Source of the DNA: a virus
Virus record (IMG/VR): IMGVR_UViG_3300006893_000001
Reading direction: 5' to 3' (one strand)
Length of the DNA stretch: 64,000 nucleotides
Both the position numbers and the translations under genes were made by a program. Under the pieces are notes generated by a model, which saw nothing but the letters and a program-made list of their open reading frames with translations, was not told where the DNA came from and did not search any database. Below, one piece after another: positions 1 to 15,340 of the stretch (its first letter is position 1; every line of letters starts with the position of its first letter).

Positions 1-220
1 TCTCTTCCATTCGGACTGCGACTTTTTCGCCAAACGACAGCGCTACAATGCTCGTCAAATCGCAGTCAGACTCTCGACGAAGCGACGATACAATTCCACC
101 ATGGGAAAATAGCGAAAGACTCAGACGCTTGACGACTCTGAGTGTTCGCTTGGTTCTCGTGTTCTAGAATCCTCGGAGCGAGCCTAATCCGATTTTTATC
201 TGTGCTCTTATTTGGAAGTT

Positions 221-331
221 CTAGTAGGCGAGTGGGTTGATGCTGATTCGCTTGCTCCACACATCGCTCGTGAAACCTTGCAGTTGGTTCAGGAAGTTGA
301 TGGTGTCTTTGGTCGTTGTCTCGGTTTGCAT
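221..331 (-). CDS. small hypothetical protein (36 aa, MQTETTTKDTINF...)
   Basis: ATG with AAGGAGA Shine-Dalgarno 6 nt upstream; below ORF-track size cutoff; found by reading the minus strand. Confidence 0.3.
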   Translation of the reverse strand: MQTETTTKDTINFLNQLQGFTSDVWSKRISINPLAY

Positions 332-401
332 TGTCGTTCTCCTTGGCTTCGAGTGATTTGTCTCTATACCTATTAGACCACAAATTACATGGTTTGTGTC
401 A

Positions 402-413
402 TGACGTACGTCA
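402..413. promoter_or_regulatory. perfect 12-bp palindrome TGACGTACGTCA (core of recurring TGCGAY-N4-GTCGCA motif)
   Basis: Self-complementary; sits in an intergenic gap just past terminator 460..490. Confidence 0.4.
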
Positions 414-459
414 CTGAAAGCAGATTCTCCGGCAGTGAGTGACGCACATCACAGGTACG

Positions 460-490
460 AAAAATGGGACAGCAATTCAGCTCTGTCCCA
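460..490 (-). terminator. intrinsic terminator closing the 3795->521 minus-strand operon
   Basis: Minus strand reads TGGGACAG-N10-CTGTCCCA followed by TTTTT, about 30 nt after the stop of 521..832. Confidence 0.7.
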
Positions 491-520
491 TTCTCCGATG
501 AAACGACGAATCTTGCTTGC

Positions 521-832
521 TTAGAAGTTGACGTTTGACGTGTATACCCAAAACGAGCGAATCTTCGTTTGGACTTCGGTACAATGCTTGCTCGTTGCAA
601 CGAGGCGTCCTTCCGTATCATCCGTTAGAACATCGTCAACCGAACCGACGAATGGATAGTTAAATTCACACGCCGATTCCGATGAGAAGAAGTTCGAACC
701 ACCATTTGCAAGAACGATTTGCGGGGTTGGAGTAGGTTGTGGCGAAGCAATCGGCGAGGTGATTGCGACTCCAATGGATGCGAGAACAATGACAGCGACG
801 ATTGTGCTAACAACGATGAGTAGAACGCGCAT
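521..832 (-). CDS. exported or membrane-anchored protein (103 aa)
   Basis: N-terminal hydrophobic helix MRVLLIVVSTIVAVIVLASIGVAI then PQPTPTPQ linker; last gene before the terminator. Confidence 0.55.
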   Translation of the reverse strand: MRVLLIVVSTIVAVIVLASIGVAITSPIASPQPTPTPQIVLANGGSNFFSSESACEFNYPFVGSVDDVLTDDTEGRLVATSKHCTEVQTKIRSFWVYTSNVNF

Positions 833-833
833 T

Positions 834-1094
834 TTAGATTTGTCCTTTCCGTAGACAGTTTGCGATTAGGTAGGTTCCGATAGGAACGAGCATGAACATC
901 CAAAGCGAAGACCAAACGGTCTTCGACGTTAGACATTCCATGTTGAAATAGTGATACCAATGCAGAATGAGTGCATCGAATATCGCGTAGATGGCAATTC
1001 CGAAGCCAAGAATCCATGGAACAATTGCTTTCGTTGATGGAATTGGTGGAAGTTCGGACAATGCGACTTTTGGTCCGTTGAAGAAGTCGTTCAT
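834..1094 (-). CDS. small membrane protein (86 aa, two hydrophobic helices)
   Basis: ORF track; ATGA start/stop overlap with 1091..1390; stop 1 nt before next start. Confidence 0.55.
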   Translation of the reverse strand: MNDFFNGPKVALSELPPIPSTKAIVPWILGFGIAIYAIFDALILHWYHYFNMECLTSKTVWSSLWMFMLVPIGTYLIANCLRKGQI

Positions 1095-1390
1095 TTTGCA
1101 ACACTGCTTCCTTCGTGCTTACGGCACGCAACAACGATGTGTTCGCTCCATGAATCTGGAAGCAAAAGTCGGTACGTGTAAAAACCTCGACTAGCCACAT
1201 CGAGAGCGAGTTTTCGGCAAAGTTCGCAATGAGTTTCGAGTGGGCACACATATTTCATTGGAATTAGTCTCCTTAAATACGACATTGAGGATAGTACCAG
1301 TTTATGACGAACGTATTGTCGACGCAACCAACGTATGATTGTGGAGCCGATAACAACGCACTCGACGATGGAATCACGAAGAGTGAACAA
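1091..1390 (-). CDS. hypothetical protein (99 aa)
   Basis: ORF track; translationally coupled to downstream gene; no recognisable domain. Confidence 0.5.
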   Translation of the reverse strand: MFTLRDSIVECVVIGSTIIRWLRRQYVRHKLVLSSMSYLRRLIPMKYVCPLETHCELCRKLALDVASRGFYTYRLLLPDSWSEHIVVACRKHEGSSVAK

Positions 1391-1430
1391 GCAAGCAGAA
1401 CAACGAGTGCGTATTTCACTTGATTTCCTC

Positions 1431-1446
1431 TGCGACGTACGTCGCT
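1431..1446. promoter_or_regulatory. operator-like inverted repeat TGCGACGTACGTCGCT
   Basis: Contains perfect 14-bp palindrome GCGACGTACGTCGC; the 30-mer TGCGACGTACGTCGCTTnGAAGATTAAnAT recurs at 3893. Confidence 0.55.
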
Positions 1447-1476
1447 TCGAAGATTAAAATCAGATTAAGTCTTCAA

Positions 1477-1492
1477 TGCGACTTTAGTCGTA
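1477..1492. promoter_or_regulatory. degenerate operator-like repeat TGCGACTTTAGTCGTA
   Basis: Matches TGCGAC-N4-GTCGyA; overlaps the stop codon of 1484..1813. Confidence 0.35.
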
Positions 1493-1813
1493 GTCATGTT
1501 GGGACAGATTTCCGTATCCATCATCGTTCCAACCATAAGCGTCTTTGACGTTCTGTTCTGCGACTGCATTAAAGTGACGAAGCTGTTCGTCAAGCTCTTT
1601 GTCCATCATATCAAGATATTCGTTGCTTTGGTTTTTTGGCATCAACATTTCCTCTGTTATGTCGTTGTTGCAAAGAACATCTAGCAAATCTACGTATGCT
1701 CTAACTATCGTCTCATCTGAGAGTTGTGCCAATTGCGCAGATTTGCCCTTACACGAAATGCAACCACACGCTTTACCGCGCACAATCGTTTCGGCTTGTT
1801 CTAAGATGTTCAT
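1484..1813 (-). CDS. hypothetical protein (109 aa)
   Basis: Start moved to internal ATG (MNILEQAE...) with GGAGGAG SD; ATGA overlap with upstream 1810..1998. Confidence 0.6.
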   Translation of the reverse strand: MNILEQAETIVRGKACGCISCKGKSAQLAQLSDETIVRAYVDLLDVLCNNDITEEMLMPKNQSNEYLDMMDKELDEQLRHFNAVAEQNVKDAYGWNDDGYGNLSQHDYD

Positions 1814-1998
1814 TTCGACTCCTCCGTTAATGCGAATCTTGCTGCATCCGAACGTACTCGTTTGCCAGAACAAGGAAGTGTTAAACCAAAACGACGAATC
1901 ATACACACTAATGTGTAATAATGTGAACCGTAAGCTTCAGCAATAGACATCGATGTATAGACTTTGTTCTTGTGAAACTTGCTGCTTAGGACTGACAT
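1810..1998 (-). CDS. hypothetical protein (62 aa)
   Basis: TGATG overlap with GAT-like gene stop and ATGA overlap with the next gene; no domain recognised. Confidence 0.45.
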   Translation of the reverse strand: MSVLSSKFHKNKVYTSMSIAEAYGSHYYTLVCMIRRFGLTLPCSGKRVRSDAARFALTEESK

Positions 1999-2786
1999 CA
2001 GATTACTCCTTGATGATTGATGAGCGCGATGTTTCGGCGAAGCAACACAGATTTGCGTCCGTCTCTGGTTGCTTGCTCGTATCCAACTTTGTCACGATTC
2101 TTCGCGATGTAGTTGCGAACGTATGCGAGTTCGTGTCCAGACAATCCGCAATACCAGGGATTTCGTCCATCCCATGAATCCTTGACCTTCGCGAACCGAT
2201 TCGTCTTGACTTTGTGACGATAGTTCATCTGCGTGATTTGACGCGGCGTGAAACTATCGTCGTTCGAATACCAACAACCGTCGAACCAAAGTCCGAATTG
2301 CTCGTTGACTATTCGAAGACTTTCCTTCGTGACAACGACCAATTTGTTGTGATAACCGACTTTGATTCGATTAGCGAGTTCGTTGAAGAACAAATCGTCG
2401 TTCATTATGTCATTCGATTGCTCGAAGACAGGACGAAGAATCATGTTTGCAAGAGTCCACGTGTCTGATTTCGTGTCGTCGAGCATTTCGATGTTGCGTA
2501 TGATTCCATTATGGAACAACCAAGCATCCGTCGTGATTTCGAATGGATGAGTCATTTCGATGGTTTTGACTCCACGAGTTGCCCATCGCATGTGAATAAC
2601 ACATTCCTCGTTCTTGTGTCGATTATACGACTGAACGAGTTCGTTCGTATCAAAACCACGCTCGACAACGATTCCATTGTCGGTTTTTGCGAGCAAACCC
2701 CATCCATGAGGATTTTGCTTGTTTGCGTTCGCGAGAGTCTTGTTATTGACTCTGCGATTCTTCGGTTTTACGATGATGAGACACAT
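1998..2786 (-). CDS. class II (Ntn, Cys1) glutamine amidotransferase-like thiol peptidase, paralog 1
   Basis: MCLIIVKP N-terminal nucleophile, NPHGWG, HMRWATRG..THPF, LFHNG; directly downstream of amidoligase. Confidence 0.8.
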   Translation of the reverse strand: MCLIIVKPKNRRVNNKTLANANKQNPHGWGLLAKTDNGIVVERGFDTNELVQSYNRHKNEECVIHMRWATRGVKTIEMTHPFEITTDAWLFHNGIIRNIEMLDDTKSDTWTLANMILRPVFEQSNDIMNDDLFFNELANRIKVGYHNKLVVVTKESLRIVNEQFGLWFDGCWYSNDDSFTPRQITQMNYRHKVKTNRFAKVKDSWDGRNPWYCGLSGHELAYVRNYIAKNRDKVGYEQATRDGRKSVLLRRNIALINHQGVI

Positions 2787-2790
2787 GTTC

Positions 2791-3795
2791 TTAGTTTCCT
2801 CTTACGCAGCGAAGTCTTTCGACTGCACGACGTTCTAATTCTGTTCCAGTGAGTACGTTTCCTTGTGTCGTTACGAACCTGCCTTCGCACTGTTCGAAAT
2901 ACCATCTTATGTAGAGTCTGCGAGAGTAGTTCGATTCTGGCATTCCATTCGTGTTGACGTAGTTTCTAACTTGTGCTGTTGTTGGATTTGAACCACGTCC
3001 ATTTGCAGGCATGATTCTTGCATTCAACGATACTCGATTCGTTCGTGCCACAACTTCTGTCGTCGTTTCAAACCTAGCAAATCGTTCTGATGCATTTGCT
3101 ATTCTCGCAACTAAGTCTGGATATTCAGTCGCATGTTCTTTCACGAAAGCAATGAATGCTTTCGGCGAATCAAGTCGACGTCCATCCTCTTTGCAATATT
3201 CCGCAACTGCGTGAGCGAAGTCAATGTCTGCTAACATTTGTTCTTTTGTATTCGTCGATGCAAACTGGCGAAATTCGACTGTTCCTGGTTTTTGTGTATT
3301 CAGTACAGCGTAACGAGTTGTCGTCCGACCACGACGAATTGATGCAGACACACGTTGTGGCGTCATTCTTTGGCAAAAATGATTTGATTTACGTCTTGCA
3401 ATAGTTGTCGTAAAGTCTGCATTGTTTCGATGGTTCATGAAAACAAGCATTCTGTTTATTTGCTGCATCGACAAAGCAGATTTTGACATGTGAATGTGAA
3501 GTCCACAAGATGCAGAACGTTGATACTTTTCGAGTGGAAGTAGATGATGAACGAATGCTTTTGCGTCGTTCTTCTTCATTGGAACACTGATAACTTCGAC
3601 ACCATTCAAACCTATCGAACCATCTTGTTCGCAGACGAATTTCGTTTGGTCTTTGTTGCCGAGTTCGTCGAGCAAATCTTCTCTCGACGTCGATGACATA
3701 ACTTCGTTTTCGATTCCGAAATACATTTCGCCACGGTTTAATGAGACAAGATTTGCAGGATTGATTCCGTGATAACCGTGAAGTTGTGCTCGCAT
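2791..3795 (-). CDS. Amidoligase_2-type (glutamine synthetase-like) carboxylate-amine ligase, paralog 1
   Basis: FGIENEV, DGSIGLNGVEVISVP, CGLHIHMS, TVEFRQFASTN motifs; SD GAGAAAGGA before ATG. Confidence 0.8.
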   Translation of the reverse strand: MRAQLHGYHGINPANLVSLNRGEMYFGIENEVMSSTSREDLLDELGNKDQTKFVCEQDGSIGLNGVEVISVPMKKNDAKAFVHHLLPLEKYQRSASCGLHIHMSKSALSMQQINRMLVFMNHRNNADFTTTIARRKSNHFCQRMTPQRVSASIRRGRTTTRYAVLNTQKPGTVEFRQFASTNTKEQMLADIDFAHAVAEYCKEDGRRLDSPKAFIAFVKEHATEYPDLVARIANASERFARFETTTEVVARTNRVSLNARIMPANGRGSNPTTAQVRNYVNTNGMPESNYSRRLYIRWYFEQCEGRFVTTQGNVLTGTELERRAVERLRCVRGN

Positions 3796-3861
3796 TTTAT
3801 TCCTTTCTCATTATAGATGTTAGTCTATGACTCTATTATCGACTATTTCGAAGGAAAAGCG

Positions 3862-3877
3862 TATGACGTACGTCGCA
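3862..3877. promoter_or_regulatory. operator-like inverted repeat TATGACGTACGTCGCA
   Basis: Half of a 16-bp-arm inverted repeat with 3893..3908; centre-to-centre 31 bp. Confidence 0.55.
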
Positions 3878-3892
3878 GCAGATTTTCCTTGC

Positions 3893-3908
3893 TGCGACGT
3901 ACGTCGCT
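3893..3908. promoter_or_regulatory. operator-like inverted repeat TGCGACGTACGTCGCT
   Basis: Perfect 14-bp palindrome GCGACGTACGTCGC; about 100 nt upstream of amidoligase-1 start. Confidence 0.6.
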
Positions 3909-3986
3909 TAGAAGATTAAGATTGGATTAAAATTCTGGGTTACGGCAAACGTCGCAATTAAGGGGCTCTATGCGATAACTTGTCTC

Positions 3987-3995
3987 TGATATAAT
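3987..3995 (+). promoter_or_regulatory. extended -10 promoter element TGaTATAAT
   Basis: Exact TGnTATAAT consensus; weak -35; points into the small ORF at 4035. Confidence 0.5.
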
Positions 3996-4034
3996 CCGGG
4001 AAGCGGAAATCTATTTCGTGGAAAGGTATCTAAT

Positions 4035-4163
4035 ATGGCGAAGAGAGCTTGTGCCGAATACGATGTCGTATGGAACGGCAAACGGTATTCAGTGGTTGAA
4101 CGCCTCCGTTTGCGACAAAAGTCGCAAATGACGCTTTCGACTGCGATAAAAGTCGCAAAGTGA
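4035..4163 (+). CDS. small basic hypothetical protein (42 aa)
   Basis: ATG with GAAAGG 9 nt upstream; body contains both operator copies 4111 and 4142, so coding status is uncertain. Confidence 0.3.
   Translation: MAKRACAEYDVVWNGKRYSVVERLRLRQKSQMTLSTAIKVAK
4111..4126. promoter_or_regulatory. operator-like inverted repeat TGCGACAAAAGTCGCA
   Basis: Perfect 6-bp arms with 4-bp spacer; paired with 4142..4157 at 31 bp. Confidence 0.6.
4142..4157. promoter_or_regulatory. operator-like inverted repeat TGCGATAAAAGTCGCA
   Basis: 5 of 6 arm positions complementary; same N4 spacer (AAAA) as 4111. Confidence 0.55.
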
Positions 4164-4176
4164 TGTGCGTCCTTCC

Positions 4177-4204
4177 TTTACTCGTAAATAGAAGCGCGTA
4201 AAAT
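4177..4204 (+). promoter_or_regulatory. sigma70-like promoter TTTACT-N16-TAAAAT (copy 1)
   Basis: Part of a 35-nt direct repeat (4174..4208 and 4228..4262) conserving exactly the -35 and -10 blocks. Confidence 0.55.
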
Positions 4205-4230
4205 TTCATGAGCACCAGAAAATTGAGTCC

Positions 4231-4258
4231 TTTACTCATTTCGAGGTACACGTAAAAT
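4231..4258 (+). promoter_or_regulatory. sigma70-like promoter TTTACT-N16-TAAAAT (copy 2)
   Basis: Second copy, 54 nt downstream of copy 1, same hexamers and spacer length. Confidence 0.55.
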
Positions 4259-4325
4259 TTCAACGATAGTCGTTATCCTGGTGGCGTGGTTCGTGTGGGC
4301 TAATTTTATTCGGCCGCTGAAGTGG

Positions 4326-4574
4326 ATGAAGCCCGGAATATGTGTAATGTGCGGACATGCGATGAACGTTCACTTTCCAGCACCTTTTCGTGGTTTTCAA
4401 GCGTGCCATCATTATCCGATGTGCGATTGCGAAATTGCGTTGGAATATGTTCCAGAGCGTCAAATCAATTCTGTTCCAGAGCGCGAAATACGTTCCAGAG
4501 CGTCGAAACATTTCTGTAGCAGTACTGCAACACAATTACTACGTGTACAAAGAGACTCGTACGTCGTATACTAG
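4326..4574 (+). CDS. possible Cys/His-rich small protein (82 aa)
   Basis: CVMCGH...CHHYPMCDCE; weak SD; contains three GTTCCAGAGCG DNA repeats, so may be non-coding. Confidence 0.25.
   Translation: MKPGICVMCGHAMNVHFPAPFRGFQACHHYPMCDCEIALEYVPERQINSVPEREIRSRASKHFCSSTATQLLRVQRDSYVVY
4449..4502. repeat. three direct copies of GTTCCAGAGCG (4449, 4473, 4492)
   Basis: Exact 11-mers spaced 24 and 19 nt; first copy is preceded by TGGAA-TATG-TTCCA inverted repeat. Confidence 0.8.
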
Positions 4575-4591
4575 AGACAGAAAGGTAAATT

Positions 4592-4870
4592 ATGAACGTT
4601 CACCTCGAACACGCTATCATTTGGACTGCGATGGTGTTCCTCGGCGTATCAATCCTTGCGTCGTATATTCGTCTCAGAGAATCAAAGCTTCAATCTCCTC
4701 CACGAGCCGTTCCACAGGCATTTTACTATCCTCATACATTCGGTAAGTGGCACGTGCATTATGACGATGGTGGATTCTCGGCTGCGATGAGTAAAGCAAT
4801 CGCATGTGATTACGCTCGAATCTTTGGCGGTTCGGCGCATGATATGAATCGGTGCGGACATGGCGTTTAG
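4592..4870 (+). CDS. membrane-anchored hypothetical protein (92 aa)
   Basis: AGAAAGG SD; N-terminal helix IIWTAMVFLGVSILASYI; first solid gene of the rightward block. Confidence 0.6.
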   Translation: MNVHLEHAIIWTAMVFLGVSILASYIRLRESKLQSPPRAVPQAFYYPHTFGKWHVHYDDGGFSAAMSKAIACDYARIFGGSAHDMNRCGHGV

Positions 4871-5039
4871 TAAAGACTTTTACATCGGTCATGCATTTGG
4901 GTATGTGGTTGTGCGCATAAAGCAGGGACTGCTTCAAATGATGCCGCTGCCTGCGACTATGAATCTAACCAGAGCACAAGCAACGTTCCTACGCGACGAA
5001 TTGACTCGCGAGTTAGAGTCTGGAGTCGCGTTCAAATGA
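4860..5039 (+). CDS. hypothetical protein (59 aa)
   Basis: Below track cutoff; overlaps previous stop by 11 nt; ATGA-coupled to a 24-aa TM peptide ORF (5036..5110) that ATGA-couples to 5107. Confidence 0.4.
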   Translation: MAFSKDFYIGHAFGYVVVRIKQGLLQMMPLPATMNLTRAQATFLRDELTRELESGVAFK

Positions 5040-5106
5040 GTCAGAACGATGTAGCATTCGTGCTCATTATCCTCATGTTCATCTTCGCGATGGCTCGGAG
5101 ACGCAG

Positions 5107-5517
5107 ATGAGCGATTCAATCGTAGCCGAGAACGTTAAGCGTGCGCTGCGCGGCACCGAACTGCATATCGATGAAGCGAACGCTATCATCGCTATGGTTC
5201 GTGAACGTACGCGTCTACCCCATAAACCCTTAATTACACGACCCGAGTATCCAGCATTTGGGTACACGACTGGATTTGAAGATGCTCAATCGCGATACAA
5301 ACCGTATTATGACAGAGCACTCAAAGCAGCGAAGCAGCTCCACGATATTATCCGAGCGCATGGCTTACTGAATCGGAATCTTGCTTCACTATCTGTTAAC
5401 TTCCTCGCGAATCTGCGTGATTCACTTCGCTTCATCAATATAGACGAAGATGGTCAAGATGGCGGATACTTCCACTATGACCGCAGCGCACAGTTCAAGG
5501 ATAATCAAATAACATGA
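5107..5517 (+). CDS. hypothetical protein (136 aa)
   Basis: ORF track; coupled on both sides by ATGA overlaps. Confidence 0.65.
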   Translation: MSDSIVAENVKRALRGTELHIDEANAIIAMVRERTRLPHKPLITRPEYPAFGYTTGFEDAQSRYKPYYDRALKAAKQLHDIIRAHGLLNRNLASLSVNFLANLRDSLRFINIDEDGQDGGYFHYDRSAQFKDNQIT

Positions 5518-5651
5518 TGCACGAACTATTGTGTCGCTTGGGTATTCATGTTCCGATGCACTTGAAGACAGAGTACTTCGGACGTGATTCAGAGTCGCAT
5601 AACATGCGCCGAGTTTGCTTTCACAAATGGATTGAGTACCACAATGCTTAG
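5514..5651 (+). CDS. small hypothetical protein (45 aa)
   Basis: ATGA overlap with 5107..5517; fills an otherwise empty gap. Confidence 0.35.
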   Translation: MMHELLCRLGIHVPMHLKTEYFGRDSESHNMRRVCFHKWIEYHNA

Positions 5652-5859
5652 GTGTGACAGTTGTGCTCGAGAATCTGAAATTCTATTTCAACTCGTTACG
5701 AGTAACAAAAAATATGTAAAGGCACGGCATCGAGAACTAATGGGCGTGTACGGCATGGATTATGCTACACCGTCTGTCTTTCAAATTGTTTGGTGTTTTA
5801 GATGTGTTTCGATGGAGCTGACTGCGACTGAAATCGTTGAGGCTAAGTCTCGTGGCTAA
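5644..5859 (+). CDS. small Cys-containing protein (71 aa)
   Basis: Start trimmed to MLRCDSCARE; CxxC...CFRC pattern suggests a zinc ribbon. Confidence 0.5.
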   Translation: MLRCDSCARESEILFQLVTSNKKYVKARHRELMGVYGMDYATPSVFQIVWCFRCVSMELTATEIVEAKSRG

Positions 5860-5860
5860 A

Positions 5861-6037
5861 ATGTCCGGCAATTGGTTAACTCGATTCCTCGATAATCTAT
5901 CGTGTCGCATTGGCTGGCACATGGACCCGCATACGTATTATGTTACGAGACGCGGTACCAATTGGGCGTATCATCAAGAGTGTCAGGCGTGCGGCGCTGA
6001 TTATGTTGAAATCAGAGCAGGAAGTAGGCGATTTTAA
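5861..6037 (+). CDS. small Cys-containing protein (58 aa)
   Basis: Start trimmed to MSGNWL, 1 nt after previous stop; HQECQACG motif. Confidence 0.5.
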   Translation: MSGNWLTRFLDNLSCRIGWHMDPHTYYVTRRGTNWAYHQECQACGADYVEIRAGSRRF

Positions 6038-6153
6038 TGGGTGACGACTATATCAAACAGATTATGGCGCTGTCATTCCTTACGTTCTTCGCAGGCATCG
6101 GCATGGGAATGCTTGGTGCAATGCTAGTGAAATACATTTCGAGACGCAAATGA
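6037..6153 (+). CDS. single-pass membrane peptide (38 aa)
   Basis: TAATG overlap; hydrophobic core ALSFLTFFAGIGMGMLGAMLV. Confidence 0.4.
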   Translation: MGDDYIKQIMALSFLTFFAGIGMGMLGAMLVKYISRRK

Positions 6154-6208
6154 GTGTATTCGCCTACATTAAGTGGCTTACTATTGAACTGAATCCAGGA
6201 AGGAAGTC

Positions 6209-6754
6209 ATGAATTTCATCACGATTGATACGGAGACTACGGGACTGTTTCCTGAGAAGCATGGAATTGTTTCAATCGGTTACGTTTTGACCGACCAGAA
6301 TGGCGAGCGATTCGACGAAGGATATACCATTTGCAATCCTGGTCGAGTTCAGTACACTAAGGAAGCGATGGACATAAACGGTCTTGCCAAGAAGATTATT
6401 GGTGCTCCTCGCGTCACTGTGGCTCTTAATGAGTTGCAAGATAAGTTTGCGCATTATAAACGAATGGGCGAATTGATAGCAGTCATGCACAACGCGCCGT
6501 TTGATGCTGGATTCATTTCAACGTCATTACGCCGACACAAATGTCAGTATAAAGACGTCAACATGTTTCGTCGTACGCTCGACACCATCTCGGTTGGATT
6601 CATGGCATTCGGCGAAGTCTTGTCGCTTGATAAACTCTGTCAGCGCTTAGAAGTCAAGAACGCCGAAGCTCACAACGCATTAGAAGATGCTCGTGCCACA
6701 AGTGTAGTGTTTCATAAGCTCAAAGATTACATTCAAGAGCGTGTGTATGGATAA
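6209..6754 (+). CDS. DnaQ-like DEDDh 3'-5' exonuclease
   Basis: Exo motifs DTETTG, HNAPFDAGF, HNALEDA; GGAAGGAAG SD. Confidence 0.85.
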   Translation: MNFITIDTETTGLFPEKHGIVSIGYVLTDQNGERFDEGYTICNPGRVQYTKEAMDINGLAKKIIGAPRVTVALNELQDKFAHYKRMGELIAVMHNAPFDAGFISTSLRRHKCQYKDVNMFRRTLDTISVGFMAFGEVLSLDKLCQRLEVKNAEAHNALEDARATSVVFHKLKDYIQERVYG

Positions 6755-6998
6755 GGAGAAGCTCAATGCCGACTTCGCAACACTCGAAGAAGCTGAAACC
6801 GCACAGAGTGGGATTACGCCACCCGAGCGATTCATTAACCCCGATACGCTTCGTGCGATTAAAAGAATTACCGGTGCGCGCACCCGTATGGTCAACCGAA
6901 TTGTGCAGAGAGTTAAGACGAAAGCTAAGCGTCGCACTAAGAATAAGTTAGCTCGTAAATCTAGGCAAACAAACCGCAAAGTGAAAGGGAAATCATGA
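6741..6998 (+). CDS. hypothetical protein with highly basic C-terminus (85 aa)
   Basis: ORF track; KTKAKRRTKNKLARKSRQTNRKVKGKS tail; true start may be 6747. Confidence 0.55.
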   Translation: MCMDKEKLNADFATLEEAETAQSGITPPERFINPDTLRAIKRITGARTRMVNRIVQRVKTKAKRRTKNKLARKSRQTNRKVKGKS

Positions 6999-7333
6999 AG
7001 AAATTACTCATCGCTCTTATGGCTGCCGCAGTCCTCGCATCCGTGAGTACAGCGAAAGCCGACACTACAAGCTTCACAGTTACAGTTGTCAACCAGTCGT
7101 CCTATACCATTGAGTATATCCAGGTTCAAGACGCAGGCGCAGGCAACTATTCGTCAGACTTGCTCGCGTCAGACCAAACAATTGCGCCGGGTCAGTCAGC
7201 TACAATACAGTTTGACGAACATCGCGGCTATTGCACATTCAACGTGGCTATCACTACGTTGAGTGGTGATACAAGCTATTTGACAGATGAGAACTTCTGT
7301 CAGAAGTCTACACTCTACGTAGTCAATCAATGA
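6995..7333 (+). CDS. secreted protein (signal peptide, 112 aa)
   Basis: MKKLLIALMAAAVLASVSTAKA-D signal-peptide-like N-terminus; ATGA coupling. Confidence 0.7.
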   Translation: MKKLLIALMAAAVLASVSTAKADTTSFTVTVVNQSSYTIEYIQVQDAGAGNYSSDLLASDQTIAPGQSATIQFDEHRGYCTFNVAITTLSGDTSYLTDENFCQKSTLYVVNQ

Positions 7334-7566
7334 CAGAGACCCGAGTCTATTCGTTCTTAGGTCGACTATACCCGGAAGGCACATCACCTTTCGGGTATTA
7401 TCCATGGCCTAGCGCCATCGAAACATTTAGAAAATTCGGCGAGACTGATTCTGAACTTAGGGACCGTATTTACAACTCAATTCAATCATCGGGTGTGACA
7501 CGAGACCACGATGCTCCACTCATTAAACCGCTATTGAATAGGCATGATAAGAATGCCAGACGTTAA
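7330..7566 (+). CDS. hypothetical protein (78 aa)
   Basis: ORF track; ATGA coupling. Confidence 0.55.
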   Translation: MTETRVYSFLGRLYPEGTSPFGYYPWPSAIETFRKFGETDSELRDRIYNSIQSSGVTRDHDAPLIKPLLNRHDKNARR

Positions 7567-7747
7567 AACGTGCGTTCATATTGACGAATTGCATGTGGTT
7601 ACACTATCATTTTCTGAATGGCCAACAAAGCGTACGTATTGTGGTGATTGTGGCCGATACGTTTGCGAGGTTTGTTGGGCCGAAGAATTACGACGGACTT
7701 ACATGAATTGTACGTCTTATCATTGCTACGCATGTTGTGATACGTGA
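7544..7747 (+). CDS. Cys-rich hypothetical protein (67 aa)
   Basis: CGDCGRYVCEVC...CTSYHCYACC. Confidence 0.5.
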   Translation: MIRMPDVKTCVHIDELHVVTLSFSEWPTKRTYCGDCGRYVCEVCWAEELRRTYMNCTSYHCYACCDT

Positions 7748-7851
7748 TAGCGAACATTGCGGCGGTTATCGGCATCGCGTTCGTGCTTTTAGTCGATATA
7801 CCGCGGCACATTATCACGGGTGCAATCTACAAGTTTAGAGGTGGACAATGA
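7744..7851 (+). CDS. single-pass membrane peptide (35 aa)
   Basis: GTGA overlap upstream and ATGA downstream; IAAVIGIAFVLLV helix. Confidence 0.35.
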   Translation: MIANIAAVIGIAFVLLVDIPRHIITGAIYKFRGGQ

Positions 7852-8126
7852 ACATGCCAAATGCTCCGAAGGCTGTGCAAGCAATGGTTATGGCTGTTAA
7901 TCGCGTCTGCGGTCAGCCAGAGGTGTCCAAAGACTTGTTCAAGATTCCAGTACAGGACCAAGAAGGTCAGTATGTAATCTTAATCTTTCGCTCGGATATG
8001 TTCAAGGAACTGAGCAAGGTCATCACCGATTTGCATTCTCGGTACGAAAAGACAGTCGTAGCCGCGACTGAAAGTGACTTGCGTCGCATCCGTGCTGGGA
8101 CGGACCTTGGTATAATTAAGCCATGA
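7848..8126 (+). CDS. hypothetical protein (92 aa)
   Basis: ORF track; coupled. Confidence 0.6.
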   Translation: MNMPNAPKAVQAMVMAVNRVCGQPEVSKDLFKIPVQDQEGQYVILIFRSDMFKELSKVITDLHSRYEKTVVAATESDLRRIRAGTDLGIIKP

Positions 8127-8578
8127 TTCAACGTTTGAACAGAATTGCTGAAGGCGTCGTCAACGCAATCGTCGTAATACTTATGCTGTTCCTCGCGTAT
8201 CACATTGGTTTTGTGTATGGCTTCCAAGCTGGACAGAATGCAGCGCCGTTCCATCCAACCGTTCAAACCAGGCAAATGTTCCACAGAATCCACCACACAT
8301 TTGCTGTCGCTACGGCGTACTGCGACAACGGCCGTACGGCTTCTGGAATGTGGACAGGTCCAGGGGTTGTAGCGATTGACCCGAATGTGATAAGATTAGG
8401 TACCGAAGTGTACTTGAATAACCATAGATACTTGGCAGCAGATACAGGCGGTGTCATTCGGTGGCACCGTCATCCGCGAAGCCAGTACGCAGACGTCGAT
8501 ATATGGATGGCGTCGTGCACAGAAGCAACAAATTGGGGCAGACGAGTAGTATCGTTTGACCAATACGCGAAAGGATAA
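8123..8578 (+). CDS. membrane-anchored 3D-domain (MltA/RlpA-like barrel) cell-wall protein
   Basis: N-terminal TM helix; TASGMWTGPGVVAIDPNVIRLGTEVYL..AADTGGVI..VDIW matches the 3D-domain pattern. Confidence 0.6.
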   Translation: MIQRLNRIAEGVVNAIVVILMLFLAYHIGFVYGFQAGQNAAPFHPTVQTRQMFHRIHHTFAVATAYCDNGRTASGMWTGPGVVAIDPNVIRLGTEVYLNNHRYLAADTGGVIRWHRHPRSQYADVDIWMASCTEATNWGRRVVSFDQYAKG

Positions 8579-8583
8579 AAATC

Positions 8584-8703
8584 ATGTTAGCAACAATCAT
8601 TCAATACGTAATCATCGGCTTTGGCTTCGGGATTGGATTCGCTCTCGGAACTGGACTCGTTGGTGCGGTGCTTAGTCTCACGAATCGTAAGGGTAACAAG
8701 TGA
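8584..8703 (+). CDS. Gly-rich membrane peptide (39 aa)
   Basis: VIIGFGFGIGFALGTGLVGAVL; GTGA overlap with the next gene. Confidence 0.4.
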   Translation: MLATIIQYVIIGFGFGIGFALGTGLVGAVLSLTNRKGNK

Positions 8704-9206
8704 AAACCGTTTACGCAGCTGGCCCTATTACGGGTATCAGCTATGGCGTGTCGACGTCGTGGCGCACAGAGTTACAGAAGCTACTTCCATTCAATGACGT
8801 AGTTATCATGTCACCGTTGCGCTCTAAGACATACCTCGCCGGTGAAACGGAAATCAAAGACCACTACGACCAAATTATGTCGACTCAGCGCGGCATCACA
8901 ACTCGTGACCGTTGGGACTGCATGTCGTGTGACGCCGTGGTCATCAATCTTCTCGGCGCTGGTCGAGTCTCAATTGGTACAATGATTGAGGTTGGCTGGT
9001 GCGACTCACGACGTATCCCTATCATCTTGGTGATGGAGGAGGAAGGCAACATTCACGAACATGCAATGCTTCGTGAGTGCTCCTCATTCAGAGTTAAGAC
9101 GCTGGCTGAAGCTGCTCATGTAATCAGCTCGCTCTTCAACCTCAGATGTGAGACGTGTGGAAAGTATCACAACGATTCCGAGTTCTGCGCGCCTGCTAAA
9201 ATATAA
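8700..9206 (+). CDS. nucleoside 2-deoxyribosyltransferase / DNPH1-like protein
   Basis: VYAAGPITG start, GTMIEVGWCDSRRIPIILV; C-terminal CxxC...C tail; GTG start. Confidence 0.55.
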   Translation: MKTVYAAGPITGISYGVSTSWRTELQKLLPFNDVVIMSPLRSKTYLAGETEIKDHYDQIMSTQRGITTRDRWDCMSCDAVVINLLGAGRVSIGTMIEVGWCDSRRIPIILVMEEEGNIHEHAMLRECSSFRVKTLAEAAHVISSLFNLRCETCGKYHNDSEFCAPAKI

Positions 9207-9222
9207 GAAAGGAGAAACAATA

Positions 9223-9465
9223 GTGAAGAATAACCTACTTGTTCTTGCGGCAATTGCTGTATTGGCTTTGACTGCGTGTACGACCAATAGTACGTATCCA
9301 AACACAAACTCAGTTCTACTGGTCCCAGTTCCTACGCACAAACCAGTCGCTACAGCCACGCCAACTGCTACGCCTACAGATGAACCGGAACCCACGCCAA
9401 AGCCGAGTCATTCACCGAAGCCTACGCCGACCCCATGCCCAACGGAAACACCAGACGGAGAGTAA
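9223..9465 (+). CDS. Pro/Thr-rich lipoprotein (80 aa)
   Basis: GTG start after AGGAGA; lipobox LALTAC; PTPTDEPEPTPKPSHSPKPTPTP. Confidence 0.6.
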   Translation: MKNNLLVLAAIAVLALTACTTNSTYPNTNSVLLVPVPTHKPVATATPTATPTDEPEPTPKPSHSPKPTPTPCPTETPDGE

Positions 9466-9722
9466 TGAACCTCTATACGAACGGCCGCGATTATGTGATT
9501 GCTGAGACGTTGTCTCAAGCGGTTCAGATTGCGGCTGACTTTTTTGGTATCCCGTTGGCTGAGTTCGTCGCTGATGTGCCTAACGATTCCTGGGAAATAA
9601 TTCCGCCGGAAGAAGCTTTCACGTATCATCACACTGAAGAGGACCCAATTCGTCCCGAGCGTCGCATTGTAGCTGATTGGCTAGCTACTGAGTCCGCTGG
9701 CTATTTTGCGTATTCAGACTAA
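9465..9722 (+). CDS. hypothetical protein (85 aa)
   Basis: Start trimmed to TAATG-coupled ATG. Confidence 0.6.
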   Translation: MNLYTNGRDYVIAETLSQAVQIAADFFGIPLAEFVADVPNDSWEIIPPEEAFTYHHTEEDPIRPERRIVADWLATESAGYFAYSD

Positions 9723-10693
9723 TGCAAGCACCATTTGAGACCGGCTTCGGGGAGCTTGACGAGACTCTTAAAATAGTCTTGGCACCGAGCCTTGCTCGTA
9801 ATGGTCCACCGAAACCACCTTTACCATTTGGCTTCCGATGGGAACATGTTCGTGAGACAGGCGACGTAATCCAGTATTGTCTTATGAGCGTGTGCCGCCA
9901 AGAAATTATTCAATCAAGCTTCGTCATCAATGCGCGAAGTATTGGATTCGCGGATAGTGGACTGCTGCCATACGACGAACTTTGCCAACTTGTTCAACAT
10001 AATATGCAGCAAGCTGTGCTTGAGGTGTTACGCCGCTTCCAAACAGAGTCTGAAGCGCTGTATAACTGTCTCGCCGCTTGTGTGCAATATTGGAATCAGG
10101 GTCTTGAACCTGCTATAATACGACAGTCATATCGCGAAGGCGCGTTGCAACACATACCCCACGCGACACCGTCACCGAACGAACATGTGTATCGCCAAGG
10201 CGAAATTCACGAACGCACTATTCATGATAACTTGACGCATGCGTATCGCAACCTTAGGTTCATTACAAGTGACCCAACTCGAGACGTCAATGTCTACAAC
10301 ATCTGGAGCAACGAGCGCGTTGCAGTTATTCGGATTCAAGACTTTTTGACCGAAGAGCAGATAATTGCAAATTGTGACCAACTCAACGAAGTCAACTCGC
10401 CTGACCGTACGTACAATCGCATGTGGCAGTGGGCAACCTTCCCGAACGGCACCATTGACCCCGCTGCGCCATTGAACTTGAATCCATTTCCACGTATTCG
10501 CATTCGACGTCCACAGGACCGTTTAGGTATGCGTCTCGCTGTGTTCAACCCTAACAACGAGAGTGACTTCTGCCACGTGGAGATGGTTCAATCACGCGAG
10601 GACATTTTACGTAACTTGTTACGTTGCCAGACCGCGGTGGATAATGGCTTAATTTTACGTACTAAAATACAAGAATATGAAGTTGGCGTCTGA
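9722..10693 (+). CDS. hypothetical protein (323 aa)
   Basis: Long ORF, coupled on both sides; no motif recognised. Confidence 0.7.
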   Translation: MQAPFETGFGELDETLKIVLAPSLARNGPPKPPLPFGFRWEHVRETGDVIQYCLMSVCRQEIIQSSFVINARSIGFADSGLLPYDELCQLVQHNMQQAVLEVLRRFQTESEALYNCLAACVQYWNQGLEPAIIRQSYREGALQHIPHATPSPNEHVYRQGEIHERTIHDNLTHAYRNLRFITSDPTRDVNVYNIWSNERVAVIRIQDFLTEEQIIANCDQLNEVNSPDRTYNRMWQWATFPNGTIDPAAPLNLNPFPRIRIRRPQDRLGMRLAVFNPNNESDFCHVEMVQSREDILRNLLRCQTAVDNGLILRTKIQEYEVGV

Positions 10694-10887
10694 TGTGGCA
10701 GGTAATGGAGCGCATTGACAAGTTCATCGGCGACCCGAATTTCAAAGGACCGCTGGAATGGGTCTATATTGGTCCGCCGCATAGTACAGAAGAGAAGGCA
10801 CAGCTTTACGCCGCGGATAAGTATGGAGTTCCGTGGCAGAACTTAAACCATGACCATGTGGTCGTGACTGAAACAGCACCGAGGTAA
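10693..10887 (+). CDS. hypothetical protein (64 aa)
   Basis: ORF track; TGATG coupling. Confidence 0.5.
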   Translation: MWQVMERIDKFIGDPNFKGPLEWVYIGPPHSTEEKAQLYAADKYGVPWQNLNHDHVVVTETAPR

Positions 10888-10891
10888 AATC

Positions 10892-11482
10892 ATGGCAACT
10901 ATGAAAGAACGCGCAAGAGTCGCGGTTGAAGGTTATCCTGGAAGTACAGCATCGCAAATTGCGAAGCTCATTGGTGAGCGACGTATGTCTAATGGTTATG
11001 GCACGACGTCATCTGCTCTTGTGAAGCTCGCTCACGCTGGTCTCGTATTCCGTAAAGAAGACGCTAAGGGAACTTGGCGCTACTATCCACCGCGTACGGC
11101 ATACGTGGGTGATGGTCCAGAAACTGCAGCTCCACGTCGTAAAGAAGCACCAGTTGTCGCAATTCAACAAACAAAGTGTAACTCTACGTGTAAATGCAAA
11201 GAACCACATATTCATCAAGCCGTTACTACGCACAAACCCGTCGACAAATTCTTGCTAGAGATTCCGATGGACCCAGAGGCAAAAGCTCGTATGCAGATTC
11301 GCAAGGGTGTCGAGCGCATCGCTGCCCTTACGCAGCTTGAGCACCGGCTTGAAGATAAGATTCGTTGGTTCCTATCAGAAGGCGAACGACGTAACGACCA
11401 ACTAGGTATCAAAGAAGTCGCTGCATTCGCTGCTCTCGAGGTAGAGCGTTGGCTCAATGACTATAAACTCCTATTCCCCTGA
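10892..11482 (+). CDS. winged-helix (MarR-like) DNA-binding protein, candidate regulator
   Basis: GSTASQIAKLIGE...SSALVKLAHAGLVFRKEDAKGTWRYY resembles an HTH plus wing; C-terminal coiled coil. Confidence 0.5.
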   Translation: MATMKERARVAVEGYPGSTASQIAKLIGERRMSNGYGTTSSALVKLAHAGLVFRKEDAKGTWRYYPPRTAYVGDGPETAAPRRKEAPVVAIQQTKCNSTCKCKEPHIHQAVTTHKPVDKFLLEIPMDPEAKARMQIRKGVERIAALTQLEHRLEDKIRWFLSEGERRNDQLGIKEVAAFAALEVERWLNDYKLLFP

Positions 11483-11651
11483 TTTAATCTGGTTCTCCGT
11501 CTGCGTAACAGTGGCGTGGATGGCTTACCAGCTAGGTCATAACGCTGCAATAGCGCAAGATAAGCTGACGAGGTTGCGAAACTTGCGTCAGCGTCAGCGT
11601 TTAGCGACTCATGTCTATCACGAGGAATACGAGGCTCGTCGAAAGCGATAG
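11457..11651 (+). CDS. small membrane protein (64 aa)
   Basis: LIWFSVCVTVAWMAYQL helix; basic tail. Confidence 0.45.
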   Translation: MTINSYSPDLIWFSVCVTVAWMAYQLGHNAAIAQDKLTRLRNLRQRQRLATHVYHEEYEARRKR

Positions 11652-11667
11652 TGCGACTTATGTCGCA
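11652..11667. promoter_or_regulatory. operator-like inverted repeat TGCGACTTATGTCGCA
   Basis: Perfect 6-bp arms; ends 1 nt before the -35 hexamer. Confidence 0.6.
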
Positions 11668-11668
11668 G

Positions 11669-11697
11669 TTTGCAGCGAAGTCTTAATCTGGTATAAT
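11669..11697 (+). promoter_or_regulatory. sigma70-like promoter TTTGCA-N17-TATAAT
   Basis: Consensus -10 and near-consensus -35 with optimal spacer; 42 nt upstream of amidoligase-2. Confidence 0.7.
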
Positions 11698-11739
11698 TGT
11701 AATCGTCAGACCCGACGGTAAATAGGAAGGGGCACAAAG

Positions 11740-13089
11740 TTGCCGCAACTGGAAATTCACGGCTATCATGGCTCAAATGCCCTGCATCTTTTAGGCCGTG
11801 GCGAAGTTCTCGACCCAAAGATTCCCCACTTCGGAATAGAGCTCGAAATGAATCCAGGACCCGATACAAATCGGGCCTCGCTTATGACTGAGCTTTATGC
11901 AAAATTCCACGGGACTGATGGTCGAGCATCCAGGTCGTTTACATGCCAACGCGATGGCTCTGTTCCAAACGGCATCGAAATCATCAGCCGCCCGCTTACG
12001 TTCCAAGCGTCCCTCGAGTTCTTAGACGACCTGCTACCGTTGCAGAATGGTACCGACGAATATCAGCGTCTTCGTGCGTGCGGAATGCATGTCCATATAT
12101 CACGTAGTGCTTTGTCTCAGAATCAGCTCGGGCGTATGGTGCTATTCGTGCACAGTCCACCGATGTTCGACTTCATGAGCAGAGTGGCTCGTCGTCAACT
12201 AACTAATCATTTTTGCCGCGCAGGTCAAAAGAGGTCGTGGTTGCAAGGGTTTACGGAGTTAACGCCACACCAACGTCAGGCAGTTAAGACTCGCATAACT
12301 GGCCTTGATTATCGAGGACGGATACAAAATCATGGAAAGTATCAAGCGCTGAACACAGAACGGCGCGACACAATTGAAGTCAGAATGTTTGCATCTACGA
12401 ATGACCCATTATATGCTAAGTCGAACATTGAGTTCTGCGAGGCGATGCTGACATACTGCAAGCCTATGGTGAGTCCACTCAAAGATTTAGTGATACCGCA
12501 CAAGTTCATCGATTTCGTGACTAGTAATCGGATGGCGTATCCTAGTCTCTCTGAGCGCTTCGGTTATCGAGACCGCTTCGGCGAGTTCTATGAGTTTCCA
12601 GTGACAGCATCAGGTCGTCCACGCAGACCACGAACCGACGTATCTGGACTGCCACGCGGTCAGCGTACTATGAGAATCACTCCAGCAGGACTTGAAGGAC
12701 ACGACGCTGAAGTAGCAGCAGCATTACGTTTTAACACAGAACGACTGGCAACTGAAGCAGCTATGAACTTAGACAGGTCAATAGCAGCGAGTATGGTTGC
12801 AACAAGTCAGCATCCAAGGTATCGTCGAGCCACGGTTCCGGCGGCGCGACGAATGCCTGGTATAGTGGACTTCGGAGTAGCACTTGGCGGAGGCTCGCGC
12901 CCACATACTACAGAGATTCGAGCATACGTTGCTGAGCATGGAATGCCGGTAGGATATAGACGACGTCGCGAATACCTCGAGTGGTACCGGCAACTATGCA
13001 ACAACAGATTTGTCACGGCTCGTGGCAATGTCTTGACGGGTGACGAACTCAGCCGTCGAGCAATTGAGCGCTTGCGTTGCGCTAGGTAA
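11740..13089 (+). CDS. Amidoligase_2-type carboxylate-amine ligase, paralog 2 (449 aa)
   Basis: TTG start after AGGAAGGGG; FGIELEM, DGSVPNGIEIISRP, CGMHVHIS, TIEVRMFASTN. Confidence 0.8.
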   Translation: MPQLEIHGYHGSNALHLLGRGEVLDPKIPHFGIELEMNPGPDTNRASLMTELYAKFHGTDGRASRSFTCQRDGSVPNGIEIISRPLTFQASLEFLDDLLPLQNGTDEYQRLRACGMHVHISRSALSQNQLGRMVLFVHSPPMFDFMSRVARRQLTNHFCRAGQKRSWLQGFTELTPHQRQAVKTRITGLDYRGRIQNHGKYQALNTERRDTIEVRMFASTNDPLYAKSNIEFCEAMLTYCKPMVSPLKDLVIPHKFIDFVTSNRMAYPSLSERFGYRDRFGEFYEFPVTASGRPRRPRTDVSGLPRGQRTMRITPAGLEGHDAEVAAALRFNTERLATEAAMNLDRSIAASMVATSQHPRYRRATVPAARRMPGIVDFGVALGGGSRPHTTEIRAYVAEHGMPVGYRRRREYLEWYRQLCNNRFVTARGNVLTGDELSRRAIERLRCAR

Positions 13090-13100
13090 GAAAGGAAACT

Positions 13101-14526: not shown

Positions 14527-14756
14527 GCGTCAAAGAAGCTGCGTTTGTAACGTTTCTGAATAACTTCAGAGCGCCAAAGCTTGAGTACTTCACTGTTCCT
14601 TGGGGCCGCGATGAGTTTATGTCATACTACGAGAAGCGTAGACTTGACCCAGCCAAGGTCGATGAATGGGTCGATATGGCAATTCGATACGCCTGCGATG
14701 GCAGGACCATTGAAGAGTACGCGAAGATATGGAGAAAACGCAATGTCCCTGCCTGA
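14496..14756 (+). CDS. hypothetical protein (86 aa)
   Basis: ORF track; overlaps both neighbours. Confidence 0.5.
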   Translation: MARKVTTDGLSVKEAAFVTFLNNFRAPKLEYFTVPWGRDEFMSYYEKRRLDPAKVDEWVDMAIRYACDGRTIEEYAKIWRKRNVPA

Positions 14757-15282: not shown

Positions 15283-15340
15283 GACTTCCATAGAGCCACC
15301 GAACAGAAATGTCTCCGTGGCTCAACTATGTCCGGTTCGG

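Follow-up and report, generated by a model that had tools for sequence, protein, structure and literature searches.

Two diverged amidoligase/GAT-like cassettes and a shared palindrome in the genome of an uncultured tailed phage

Iyer, Abhiman, Burroughs and Aravind reportedly predicted, in 2009, a phage gene neighbourhood composed of an amidoligase and a class-II GAT-like thiol hydrolase (plus AIG2/GGACT), and this is presumably the kind of module that the description of the Pfam family PF12224 covers. Among cellular systems, EgtA/EgtC, PuuA/PuuD and PafA/Dop add and remove a gamma-glutamyl or Pup-Glu amide; EgtC, of the ergothioneine pathway, hydrolyses a gamma-glutamyl amide. The phage neighbourhood has been annotated in LUZ24-like Pseudomonas phages, phiEco32, mycobacteriophage Marvin (cluster S) and the OM43 phages MEP401/402, and later papers quote predictions only, namely cell-wall modification plus superinfection exclusion, or secondary metabolism (PMC10580990). 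Here, we analysed a stretch of 64,000 nucleotides (referred to as the window) of the IMG/VR virus record IMGVR_UViG_3300006893_000001, which belongs to an otherwise very novel, uncultured tailed myovirus of about 73 kb whose nearest capsid homologs are 33% identical. The window carries two pairs of an amidoligase and a GAT-like gene, a short one transcribed leftward (ligS-gatS) and a long one transcribed rightward (ligL-gatL), which we refer to as cassettes.

The window resembles the neighbourhood predicted in 2009 in that the same two families are encoded in the order ligase-then-GAT on one strand of an early/replication region, and in that the genome also encodes a gamma-glutamylamine cyclotransferase (GGACT). 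It differs in having two complete pairs on opposite strands, an extra C-terminal domain on the ligases and helical C-terminal extensions on both GAT-like proteins, and in that GGACT is unlinked, 20 kb off, yet shares the operator motif of the cassettes. With the Egt, Puu and Pup systems, the cassettes have in common the pairing of a ligase resembling glutamine synthetase (GS) with a hydrolase predicted to act on a glutamyl amide. This similarity is at the level of the fold only, and EgtB/D, Pup, proteasome and Puu genes are absent here (no systematic search for a Pup-like gene was made).

The two cassettes and their predicted enzymes

An initial annotation of the window had called ligS and gatS as open reading frames (ORFs) of 334 and 262 amino acids heading a leftward operon, with a paralogous pair about 8 kb away on the opposite strand. 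Both ORFs are present with these lengths, the starts of the two cassettes are 7.9 kb apart, and the pairwise alignment that the annotation had proposed gave 33% identity over 321 amino acids for the ligases (BLASTP, E 9e-44), with a separate C-terminal block of 81 amino acids at 53% identity, and 36% identity over 254 amino acids for the GAT-like proteins (E 6e-49). In either cassette, the ligase gene lies directly upstream of the GAT gene on the same strand, with spacers of 4 nt (ligS/gatS) and 11 nt (ligL/gatL). When all window ORFs were compared with one another, the two pairs were the sole paralogs apart from those among tail and head genes; the duplicated unit is therefore exactly the two-gene cassette.

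Both ligases match Amidoligase_2 (PF12224), with 30.9 bits for ligS and 38.5 bits for ligL at a Pfam gathering cut-off of 22, and ligL scores 252.5 bits on a hidden Markov model (HMM) of the family. ligS, modelled confidently with AlphaFold2 from 92 homologs (pLDDT 89.9), comprises a catalytic domain (residues ~1-245), a disordered linker (249-263) and a C-terminal helical domain (~264-334); the fold of ligL was taken from its 33% identity to ligS. A search of the PDB sequences with the ligase profile gave zero matches, and PDB matches were obtained by fold comparison alone: Foldseek placed YbdK (1r8g/1tt4) first, followed by glutamine synthetases and GCL, all at probability 1.0, albeit with TM-scores of just 0.33-0.39 and identities of 11-13%, whereas Dop/PafA were weak matches (E 0.04-0.2). 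The likeness to YbdK/GCS2, GS and GCL (1r8g, 1tt4, 4lnn, 2gwc) consists of a Glu/His/Arg active-site pattern on an antiparallel sheet; ligS differs from them in being smaller and in its added C-terminal domain. The structural matches of ligS in BFVD are phage amidoligases, including those of Mycobacterium phage Tesla and Pseudomonas phage tf (best E 4.5e-17). Ten residues, D58, G65, E67, H100, H102, R135, T172, E174, R176 and F178, are invariant across the 92 ligase sequences, in which the conservation of E29 and E31 is 90% or more; ligS and ligL carry all of these residues. Most likely, ligS and ligL are carboxylate-amine ligases of the GS/GCL fold, for which ATP-dependent formation of an amide bond is predicted from fold and motifs.

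The ligase family is very large, with 9,856 members at E <= 0.001 when 1.84 billion representatives were scanned in full with HMMER. The extra C-terminal domain of about 70 amino acids on both window ligases, with the pattern 'GMP..Y..WY..C...T.RGNV..G', occurs in only about five of the 1.8 billion representatives, and is shared by P0005 and P0011. The C-terminal domains of the ligases and of the GAT-like proteins gave no Pfam match even at E 1; a helix-extended-helix motif that would bind DNA is a mere guess for them. ligL keeps the domain order of ligS, with extra loop insertions and a linker of ~115 instead of ~45 amino acids. The public gene call of ligL (413 amino acids, P0004) begins at M37, just past the conserved, metal-binding GIELE strand. 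A TTG start at 11740 adds back this strand together with the HGYHG N-terminus common to ligS (window 11740..11850), and is for this reason the start of ligL supported by homology. Many homologous amidoligases have Cys-rich, zinc-ribbon or LIM-like N-terminal extensions of 100-400 amino acids (P0006-P0009 and the ligases of L007/L036), but these extended proteins are without the C-terminal domain of the window ligases; in 35 of the 148 top ligase representatives, the N-terminal extension exceeds 150 amino acids.

As for the GAT-like proteins, gatS just passes the Pfam GATase_4 cut-off (23.4 bits versus 23) and gatL has no Pfam match at E 0.01, while on an HMM from 74 homologs the two score 227-254 bits (226.9 for gatL). 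gatL is known by its sequence; gatS was modelled with AlphaFold2 (pLDDT 88.7) as a core (~1-180) plus a helical C-terminal extension. Its best Foldseek match was the glutaminase domain of GlmS with bound glutamate (1xff, E 2e-8), followed by PurF, EgtC (4zfl, E 7e-5) and PA1307 (1te5), and by this model gatS is of the GlmS/EgtC-type Ntn fold. Both proteins have a Cys right after Met1 (MCLIIVKP in gatS, MCVIIVKP in gatL); this C2 is nearly invariant across the 74 homologs, M1, N25, H65, R67, T70, H80, H92, N93, G94, D108 and S174 are invariant, and gatS and gatL carry the complete set. In GlmS, an Arg and an Asp hold the alpha-carboxylate and the alpha-amino group of glutamine. R67 and N93-G94 of gatS align to R73 and N98-G99 of GlmS, and D108 was assigned to D123 by its S/N-D-T motif; the conservation of these Arg, Asn-Gly and Asp residues implies that the GAT-like proteins may bind free glutamine or a gamma-glutamyl moiety. 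The initial annotation had spoken of a peptidase, an unproven label; going by the conserved residues for Gln/Glu binding, a glutaminase or a gamma-glutamyl amidohydrolase is indicated instead. Neither gatS nor gatL has the covalently attached synthase domain of true amidotransferases, both being stand-alone, and a set of 240 homologs contained no fusion of a ligase with a GAT.

Thus, the claim that both pairs keep every catalytic motif was confirmed, with all family-invariant residues present in all four proteins. The analysis of these sequences makes it rather probable that the window carries two functional, diverged amidoligase plus GAT-like modules, and the retention of every catalytic residue at 33-36% identity favours two specificities over one.

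Operon structure and a common palindrome

The operator motif is the palindrome TGCGAC-N4-GTCGCA. With at most one mismatch, seven sites were found against 0.29 expected, a number reached by none of 100 shuffles, and with at most two mismatches 14 against 3.8. All seven best sites sit at the ligS operon, at the ligL promoter or at the operon that ends with the GGACT gene (Table 1). The initial annotation had noted a pair of the same operator motifs, which is real upstream of ligS (3862, 3893), but the rightward cassette has a single perfect site. This site abuts the -35 element of the ligL promoter. The block around position 1431, within the leftward operon, repeats ~45 nt of the block upstream of ligS. 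These results suggest that both cassettes and the GGACT operon may form one regulon with a common regulator. As both promoters and the GGACT operon have this palindrome in common, co-regulation is likelier than early and late isoforms; of the explanations offered in the initial annotation for the two pairs, two substrates are favoured by the divergence of the copies, whereas the isoforms are weakened by the common palindrome. The divergent control region (3796..4600) has further repeats: a unit with GTTCCAGAGCG in it occurs three times (4444..4522), and there are two repeats of 35 nt (4174..4262).

The leftward operon, previously described as having seven genes, comprises eight ORFs in the window and nine in a sister strain. 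ligS and gatS are separated by 4 nt, gatS and the 62-aa ORF overlap by 1 nt (TGATG), and the 62-aa and 109-aa ORFs by 4 nt (ATGA). A gap of 64 nt holding two palindromes precedes the 48-aa ORF, and the distal junctions are +14 nt (48/55 aa), -4 nt (55/86 aa, ATGA) and +1 nt (86/103 aa). From their sequences, the last three or four ORFs look like small membrane or secreted proteins. The terminator at the end of the operon is real, with an RNA fold of -22.1 kcal/mol (z -4.34) that none of 200 shuffles equalled. Beyond it, at 404..415, lies a related palindrome, TGACGTACGTCA, and for ~2.7 kb the public contig has no gene call (window 1..520 and beyond; L084 12655..15374).

Table 1 Features of the two cassettes, their operons and control elements, and the GGACT gene in the window.
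Feature	Coordinates	Strand	Details
ligS, short amidoligase	2791..3795	-	334 aa; Pfam, AlphaFold2 model, Foldseek, invariants
gatS, short class-II Ntn Cys1 GAT-like amidohydrolase	1998..2786	-	262 aa; Pfam, AlphaFold2, Foldseek, invariants
ligL, long amidoligase	11740..13089	+	449 aa, TTG start; Pfam, alignment, family HMM
gatL, long GAT-like Ntn amidohydrolase	13101..14060	+	319 aa; 36% identity to gatS, family HMM, invariants
62-aa ORF	1810..1998	-	start overlaps gatS stop (TGATG)
109-aa ORF	1484..1813	-	ATGA overlap with 62-aa ORF; no family match
48-aa ORF	1273..1419	-	GTG start; N-terminal hydrophobic signal-like segment; after 64-nt gap
55-aa ORF	1091..1258	-	Cys-rich
86-aa ORF	834..1094	-	two hydrophobic segments, probable membrane protein
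103-aa ORF	521..832	-	N-terminal transmembrane or signal segment; last gene of leftward operon
Intrinsic terminator	459..489	-	GGGACAG...CTGTCCC, then U run
Palindrome pair upstream of ligS	3862..3877, 3893..3908		2 mismatches and 1 mismatch; 31 bp apart
Second palindrome pair, divergent control region	4111..4126, 4142..4157		perfect and 1 mismatch; 31 bp apart
Palindromes in the 64-nt gap of the leftward operon	1431..1446, 1477..1492		
Palindrome upstream of ligL	11652..11667		perfect; TGCGACTTATGTCGCA
ligL promoter	11669..11697	+	sigma-70-like, TTTGCA-17-TATAAT with TG extension
GNAT acetyltransferase	14050..14526	+	overlaps gatL end
DUF1643 protein	14581..15282	+	downstream of rightward cassette
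Palindrome upstream of the small operon ending with the GGACT gene	33427..33442		TGCGATATACGTCGCA
GGACT/AIG2-like gamma-glutamylamine cyclotransferase	34123..34671	+	182 aa; PF06094 73.6 bits, PHROG 2520

Relatives in other viruses and the possible chemistry

The occurrence of the module elsewhere was assessed in 80 IMG/VR loci encoding this GAT-like family, which were found with the GAT alignment and taken with 10-kb flanks, the copies being counted by custom HMMs. One ligase and one GAT within 10 kb were encoded in 45 loci and a GAT only in 24, whereas extra copies of either gene were present in 11 of the 80: two ligases and one GAT in four, one ligase and two GATs in four, three ligases and one GAT in two, and four complete pairs in one (L036, IMGVR_UViG_3300035698_009306). 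Fifty-nine of 65 adjacent pairs in these loci had the ligase before the GAT on the same strand. A tblastn search of 50,697 phage records (INPHARED) gave homologs in 26-31 records, each in a single place and including Mycobacterium cluster-S (Marvin-like) phages and the OM43 phages MEP401/402, at 26-31% identity. A published prophage table lists two amidoligase ORFs beside a GGCT gene (PMC11318856), and in LUZ24-like phages one GAT is surrounded by several amide ligases that belong to different families (PMC3890496). Multiple copies are thus a minority state, with precedent.

L036 resembles the window in having several diverged ligase/GAT pairs in one viral genome. It differs in that its four pairs (290..13119) lie in tandem on one strand within 13 kb, in that some of its ligases bear Cys-rich extensions at the N-terminus and do not have the C-terminal domain of the window ligases, and in that its proteins are just 22-28% identical to those of the window. 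The L036 pairs are 25-35% identical to each other and the similarity ranks of ligases and GATs agree, with pair 2 matching pair 4 best and pair 1 matching pair 3 best. Because these ranks are congruent, the cassettes of L036 duplicate and co-diverge as units, and so do those of the window.

GGACT enzymes cleave gamma-glutamyl-amines to 5-oxoproline and the free amine, an established reaction on which Oakley et al. reportedly worked in 2010. In 84 loci, i.e. the 80 from IMG/VR plus L001-L003 and the window, the GAT-like domain was fused to GGACT in 43 (e.g. L021 9950..11053; L019-L046 and others), and GGACT was encoded separately in five more, including the window. The window GGACT is not adjacent to either cassette but lies downstream of the same palindrome motif, and is likely a third component of the module. 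In about half of the loci with a GAT-GGACT fusion, no Amidoligase_2 gene was detectable within 10 kb.

We lean, by a narrow measure, towards a reading in which the window encodes two diverged functional modules that carry out gamma-glutamyl-type ligation and cleavage on two targets and are controlled by a common regulator. In each module, the ligase would activate a carboxylate with ATP, most likely the gamma-carboxyl of glutamate, and join it to an amine; the Cys1 Ntn amidohydrolase would bind free glutamine or a gamma-glutamyl moiety; and GGACT would probably work together with the hydrolases, either to cleave or trim a gamma-glutamyl amide or to release ammonia from glutamine for the ligase. 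Each copy may be a self-contained two-enzyme unit, and each would act on an acceptor molecule of its own in the infected cell, with both controlled by a common regulator that binds TGCGAC-N4-GTCGCA. The chemistry by itself, which we derive from folds and motifs, is a tentative assignment with somewhat less than an even chance of being right; the GAT-GGACT fusions narrow the likely chemistry to gamma-glutamyl amides. The two targets and the co-regulation by one protein are what we infer from the cassettes and the palindrome: two acceptors are most likely because whole cassettes duplicate and co-diverge, with each ligase keeping its own partner. Several points weigh against this reading. In the literature searched, no substrate or experimental function was demonstrated for the phage module; a stand-alone glutaminase supplying ammonia would be just as consistent with the conserved residues; the nearest cassette is 20 kb away from GGACT; and co-regulation is deduced from the motif by itself, the palindrome-binding protein being putative.

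The glutaminase is at the centre of an alternative that we regard as doubtful, in which the GAT-like protein feeds ammonia to the ligase and the ligase amidates a carboxylate on a target, e.g. the D-iso-glutamate of peptidoglycan, as in MurT/GatD, or another envelope or metabolite carboxylate, with two cassettes for two targets. That the structure most similar to gatS is the glutamate-bound glutaminase domain of GlmS is in line with this, as are the invariant Gln-binding residues R67, N93-G94 and D108 and the three small membrane or secreted proteins co-encoded in the leftward operon; in addition, later papers quote from Iyer 2009 a role of phiEco32 in cell-wall modification/superinfection exclusion. 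On the other hand, the GAT-GGACT fusion in 43 of the 84 loci points to cleavage of gamma-glutamyl-amines, the 240 homologs are without a ligase-GAT fusion, and EgtC, the nearest stand-alone class-II GAT-like enzyme of known chemistry, is a gamma-glutamyl amidohydrolase. Because of the GGACT fusions, we rate feeding of ammonia lower than gamma-glutamyl chemistry.

It is improbable, in our view, that the cassettes build or trim an amino-acid adduct on a modified pyrimidine in DNA or nucleotides. The phage does encode a dCMP deaminase, a MazG-like pyrophosphohydrolase, a P-loop thymidylate-kinase-like kinase, a divergent thymidylate-synthase-like protein of 350 amino acids and two nucleoside 2-deoxyribosyltransferase-like proteins (21768..22238, 26279..26752, 27053..27721, 27722..28774, 8700..9206 and 31988..32539), a set whose sequences are compatible with a non-canonical pyrimidine in its DNA. 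A DUF1643 protein follows the rightward cassette, the ligase C-terminal domain, as a small helical module, is a candidate for a role in such a modification, and amidoligase and GAT Pfam domains were reported in viral contigs with thymidine-hypermodification genes (Lee et al. 2021, PMC8989533). Nevertheless, no 5-hmdU DNA kinase or aGPT-pyrophosphorylase was found among the proteins scanned, which were part of the window ORFs, many cassette-bearing phages are without known DNA modification, and the neighbours of the IMG/VR cassettes are generic replication/recombination genes (DnaB, AAA_24, PD-(D/E)XK, Sak, UDG).

A far-reaching extension of the gamma-glutamyl reading, which we offer as speculation with little chance of being correct, is that the cassettes and the unlinked GGACT form a regulon running reversible gamma-glutamyl (or similar amino-acyl) tagging on two different host or phage macromolecules, as a phage-borne analogue of PafA/Dop with two specificities. 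It is just as speculative that a single palindrome-binding regulator would control such a cycle while the lineage-specific C-terminal domains set its specificity, and equally so that differences in ligS and gatS between strains, described below, would stem from a continuing arms race between phage and host. The PADLOC defence models gave no match among the proteins tested.

The two diverged intact copies represent a natural experiment, in which the positions that differ around the fixed catalytic core are candidate specificity determinants. Moreover, the module is widespread in phages and has been without a demonstrated substrate since its prediction in 2009, and the shared palindrome offers a testable regulon. 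We consider the subfamily-specific C-terminal domains, the palindrome linking both cassettes with GGACT and the clustering of strain differences modestly new; the value is incremental, as the phage has not been cultured and other viruses also carry multiple copies.

Origin, strain variation and surroundings of the cassettes

The initial annotation regarded the two pairs as an old duplication and not an assembly artefact. The paralogs are indeed real, old and intact, and no artefact is involved, but a duplication inside this genome is unproven. Among the 1.8 billion representatives, ligS and ligL are reciprocal best matches, except for the only ortholog of ligS, P0002 on the 5.5-kb contig L001. 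In neighbour-joining trees with bootstraps, ligS and ligL were sisters among 87 ligase sequences, but in just 151 of 300 bootstraps, and gatS and gatL shared a small clade with the GATs of L001 and L002 (86 of 300) without being strict sisters. From these comparisons we conclude that both cassettes descend from one ancestor inside a narrow subfamily.

The second cassette may have been acquired from a related phage instead of duplicated in situ; the GAT tree, the ligase support of 151 of 300, the low G+C content (GC) of the leftward unit and the fact that L001 shares only the cassette leave room for acquisition. In its strong form, in which the leftward cassette and its tail of small genes are a horizontally acquired moron that is redundant with the resident rightward cassette, we find this scenario unlikely. 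The leftward unit has a GC of 44.6% compared to ~50% elsewhere, the GC at third codon positions is 35% in ligS and 46% in ligL, and the closest relatives of the cassette, 52-64% identical, lie on L001 (52% GC), which has no other gene in common with the window. Also the topology of the GAT tree and a strain-level indel directly downstream of the leftward cassette speak for it. However, once the L001 ortholog is set aside, ligS and ligL are reciprocal best matches, and they share a C-terminal domain of only about five representatives, plain redundancy is unlikely to be maintained at 33-36% identity with all catalytic residues kept, the leftward unit bears the same operator as the rest of the putative regulon, and the three strain differences in the cassette all change amino acids without stops or frameshifts.

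Close relatives were searched with a megablast of window 1..12000 against INPHARED, which gave no match; an IMG/VR scan with ligS gave zero relatives and a word-indexed protein search L001 only. A distant relative is the 37-kb contig L003, with portal and capsid 40-65% identical and one cassette in the 21 kb read. In the region 7497..12599, the genes around this single cassette encode a TROVE/Ro60-vWA protein, a resolvase and an RNase T-like exonuclease, and the cassette adjoins the terminase gene.

Two other assemblies of the same phage were available, ENA ERZ27245849 (73,649 bp; L084) and Logan SRR5580868. The ENA contig showed five single-base differences to window 1..53155, three of which fall in the 1.8-kb leftward cassette, where ~0.17 of five would be expected under a uniform distribution. 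All three are non-synonymous, T282A and L294R in the C-terminal domain of ligS and V160I in gatS, and the same three are also present in the Logan contig (strain-difference positions: 2309, 2915, 2952; also 21734, 44080, 54151, 60641). The leftward cassette is not decaying, and the clustering of non-synonymous differences in ligS and gatS suggests that this copy is under active selection. Against this, three differences are a small sample, and they could represent one recombination patch (2309..2952) or relaxed constraint. Gene conversion from ligL was rejected as a source of the ligS differences, as neither allele matches ligL there. Just downstream of gatS, the ENA strain has ~380 bp more than the window (L084 10789..11366), with two complete proteins of 81 amino acids; the 62-aa ORF of the window is an in-frame deletion fusion of the ends of these two genes. 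The second 81-aa protein has a helix-turn-helix-like motif and is, by its sequence, a candidate regulator. Another candidate for the putative palindrome-binding protein is a protein of 196 amino acids encoded at 10892..11482.

On the rightward side, the genes for the GNAT acetyltransferase and the DUF1643 protein probably belong to the ligL-gatL transcription unit. Directly downstream of it lie 26 tRNA genes for all 20 amino acids (15341..17545, plus strand; ARAGORN, Rfam). In L003, 23 tRNA genes were found near the cassette, whereas the 59 IMG/VR cassette loci scanned had 0-2; the array is therefore a lineage trait and not a cassette trait, and a general functional link between the two was rejected. 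Finally, a protein of 130 amino acids with a response-regulator receiver domain (PF00072, match in L088) is encoded on the minus strand at ~54984..55376, between head and sheath genes.

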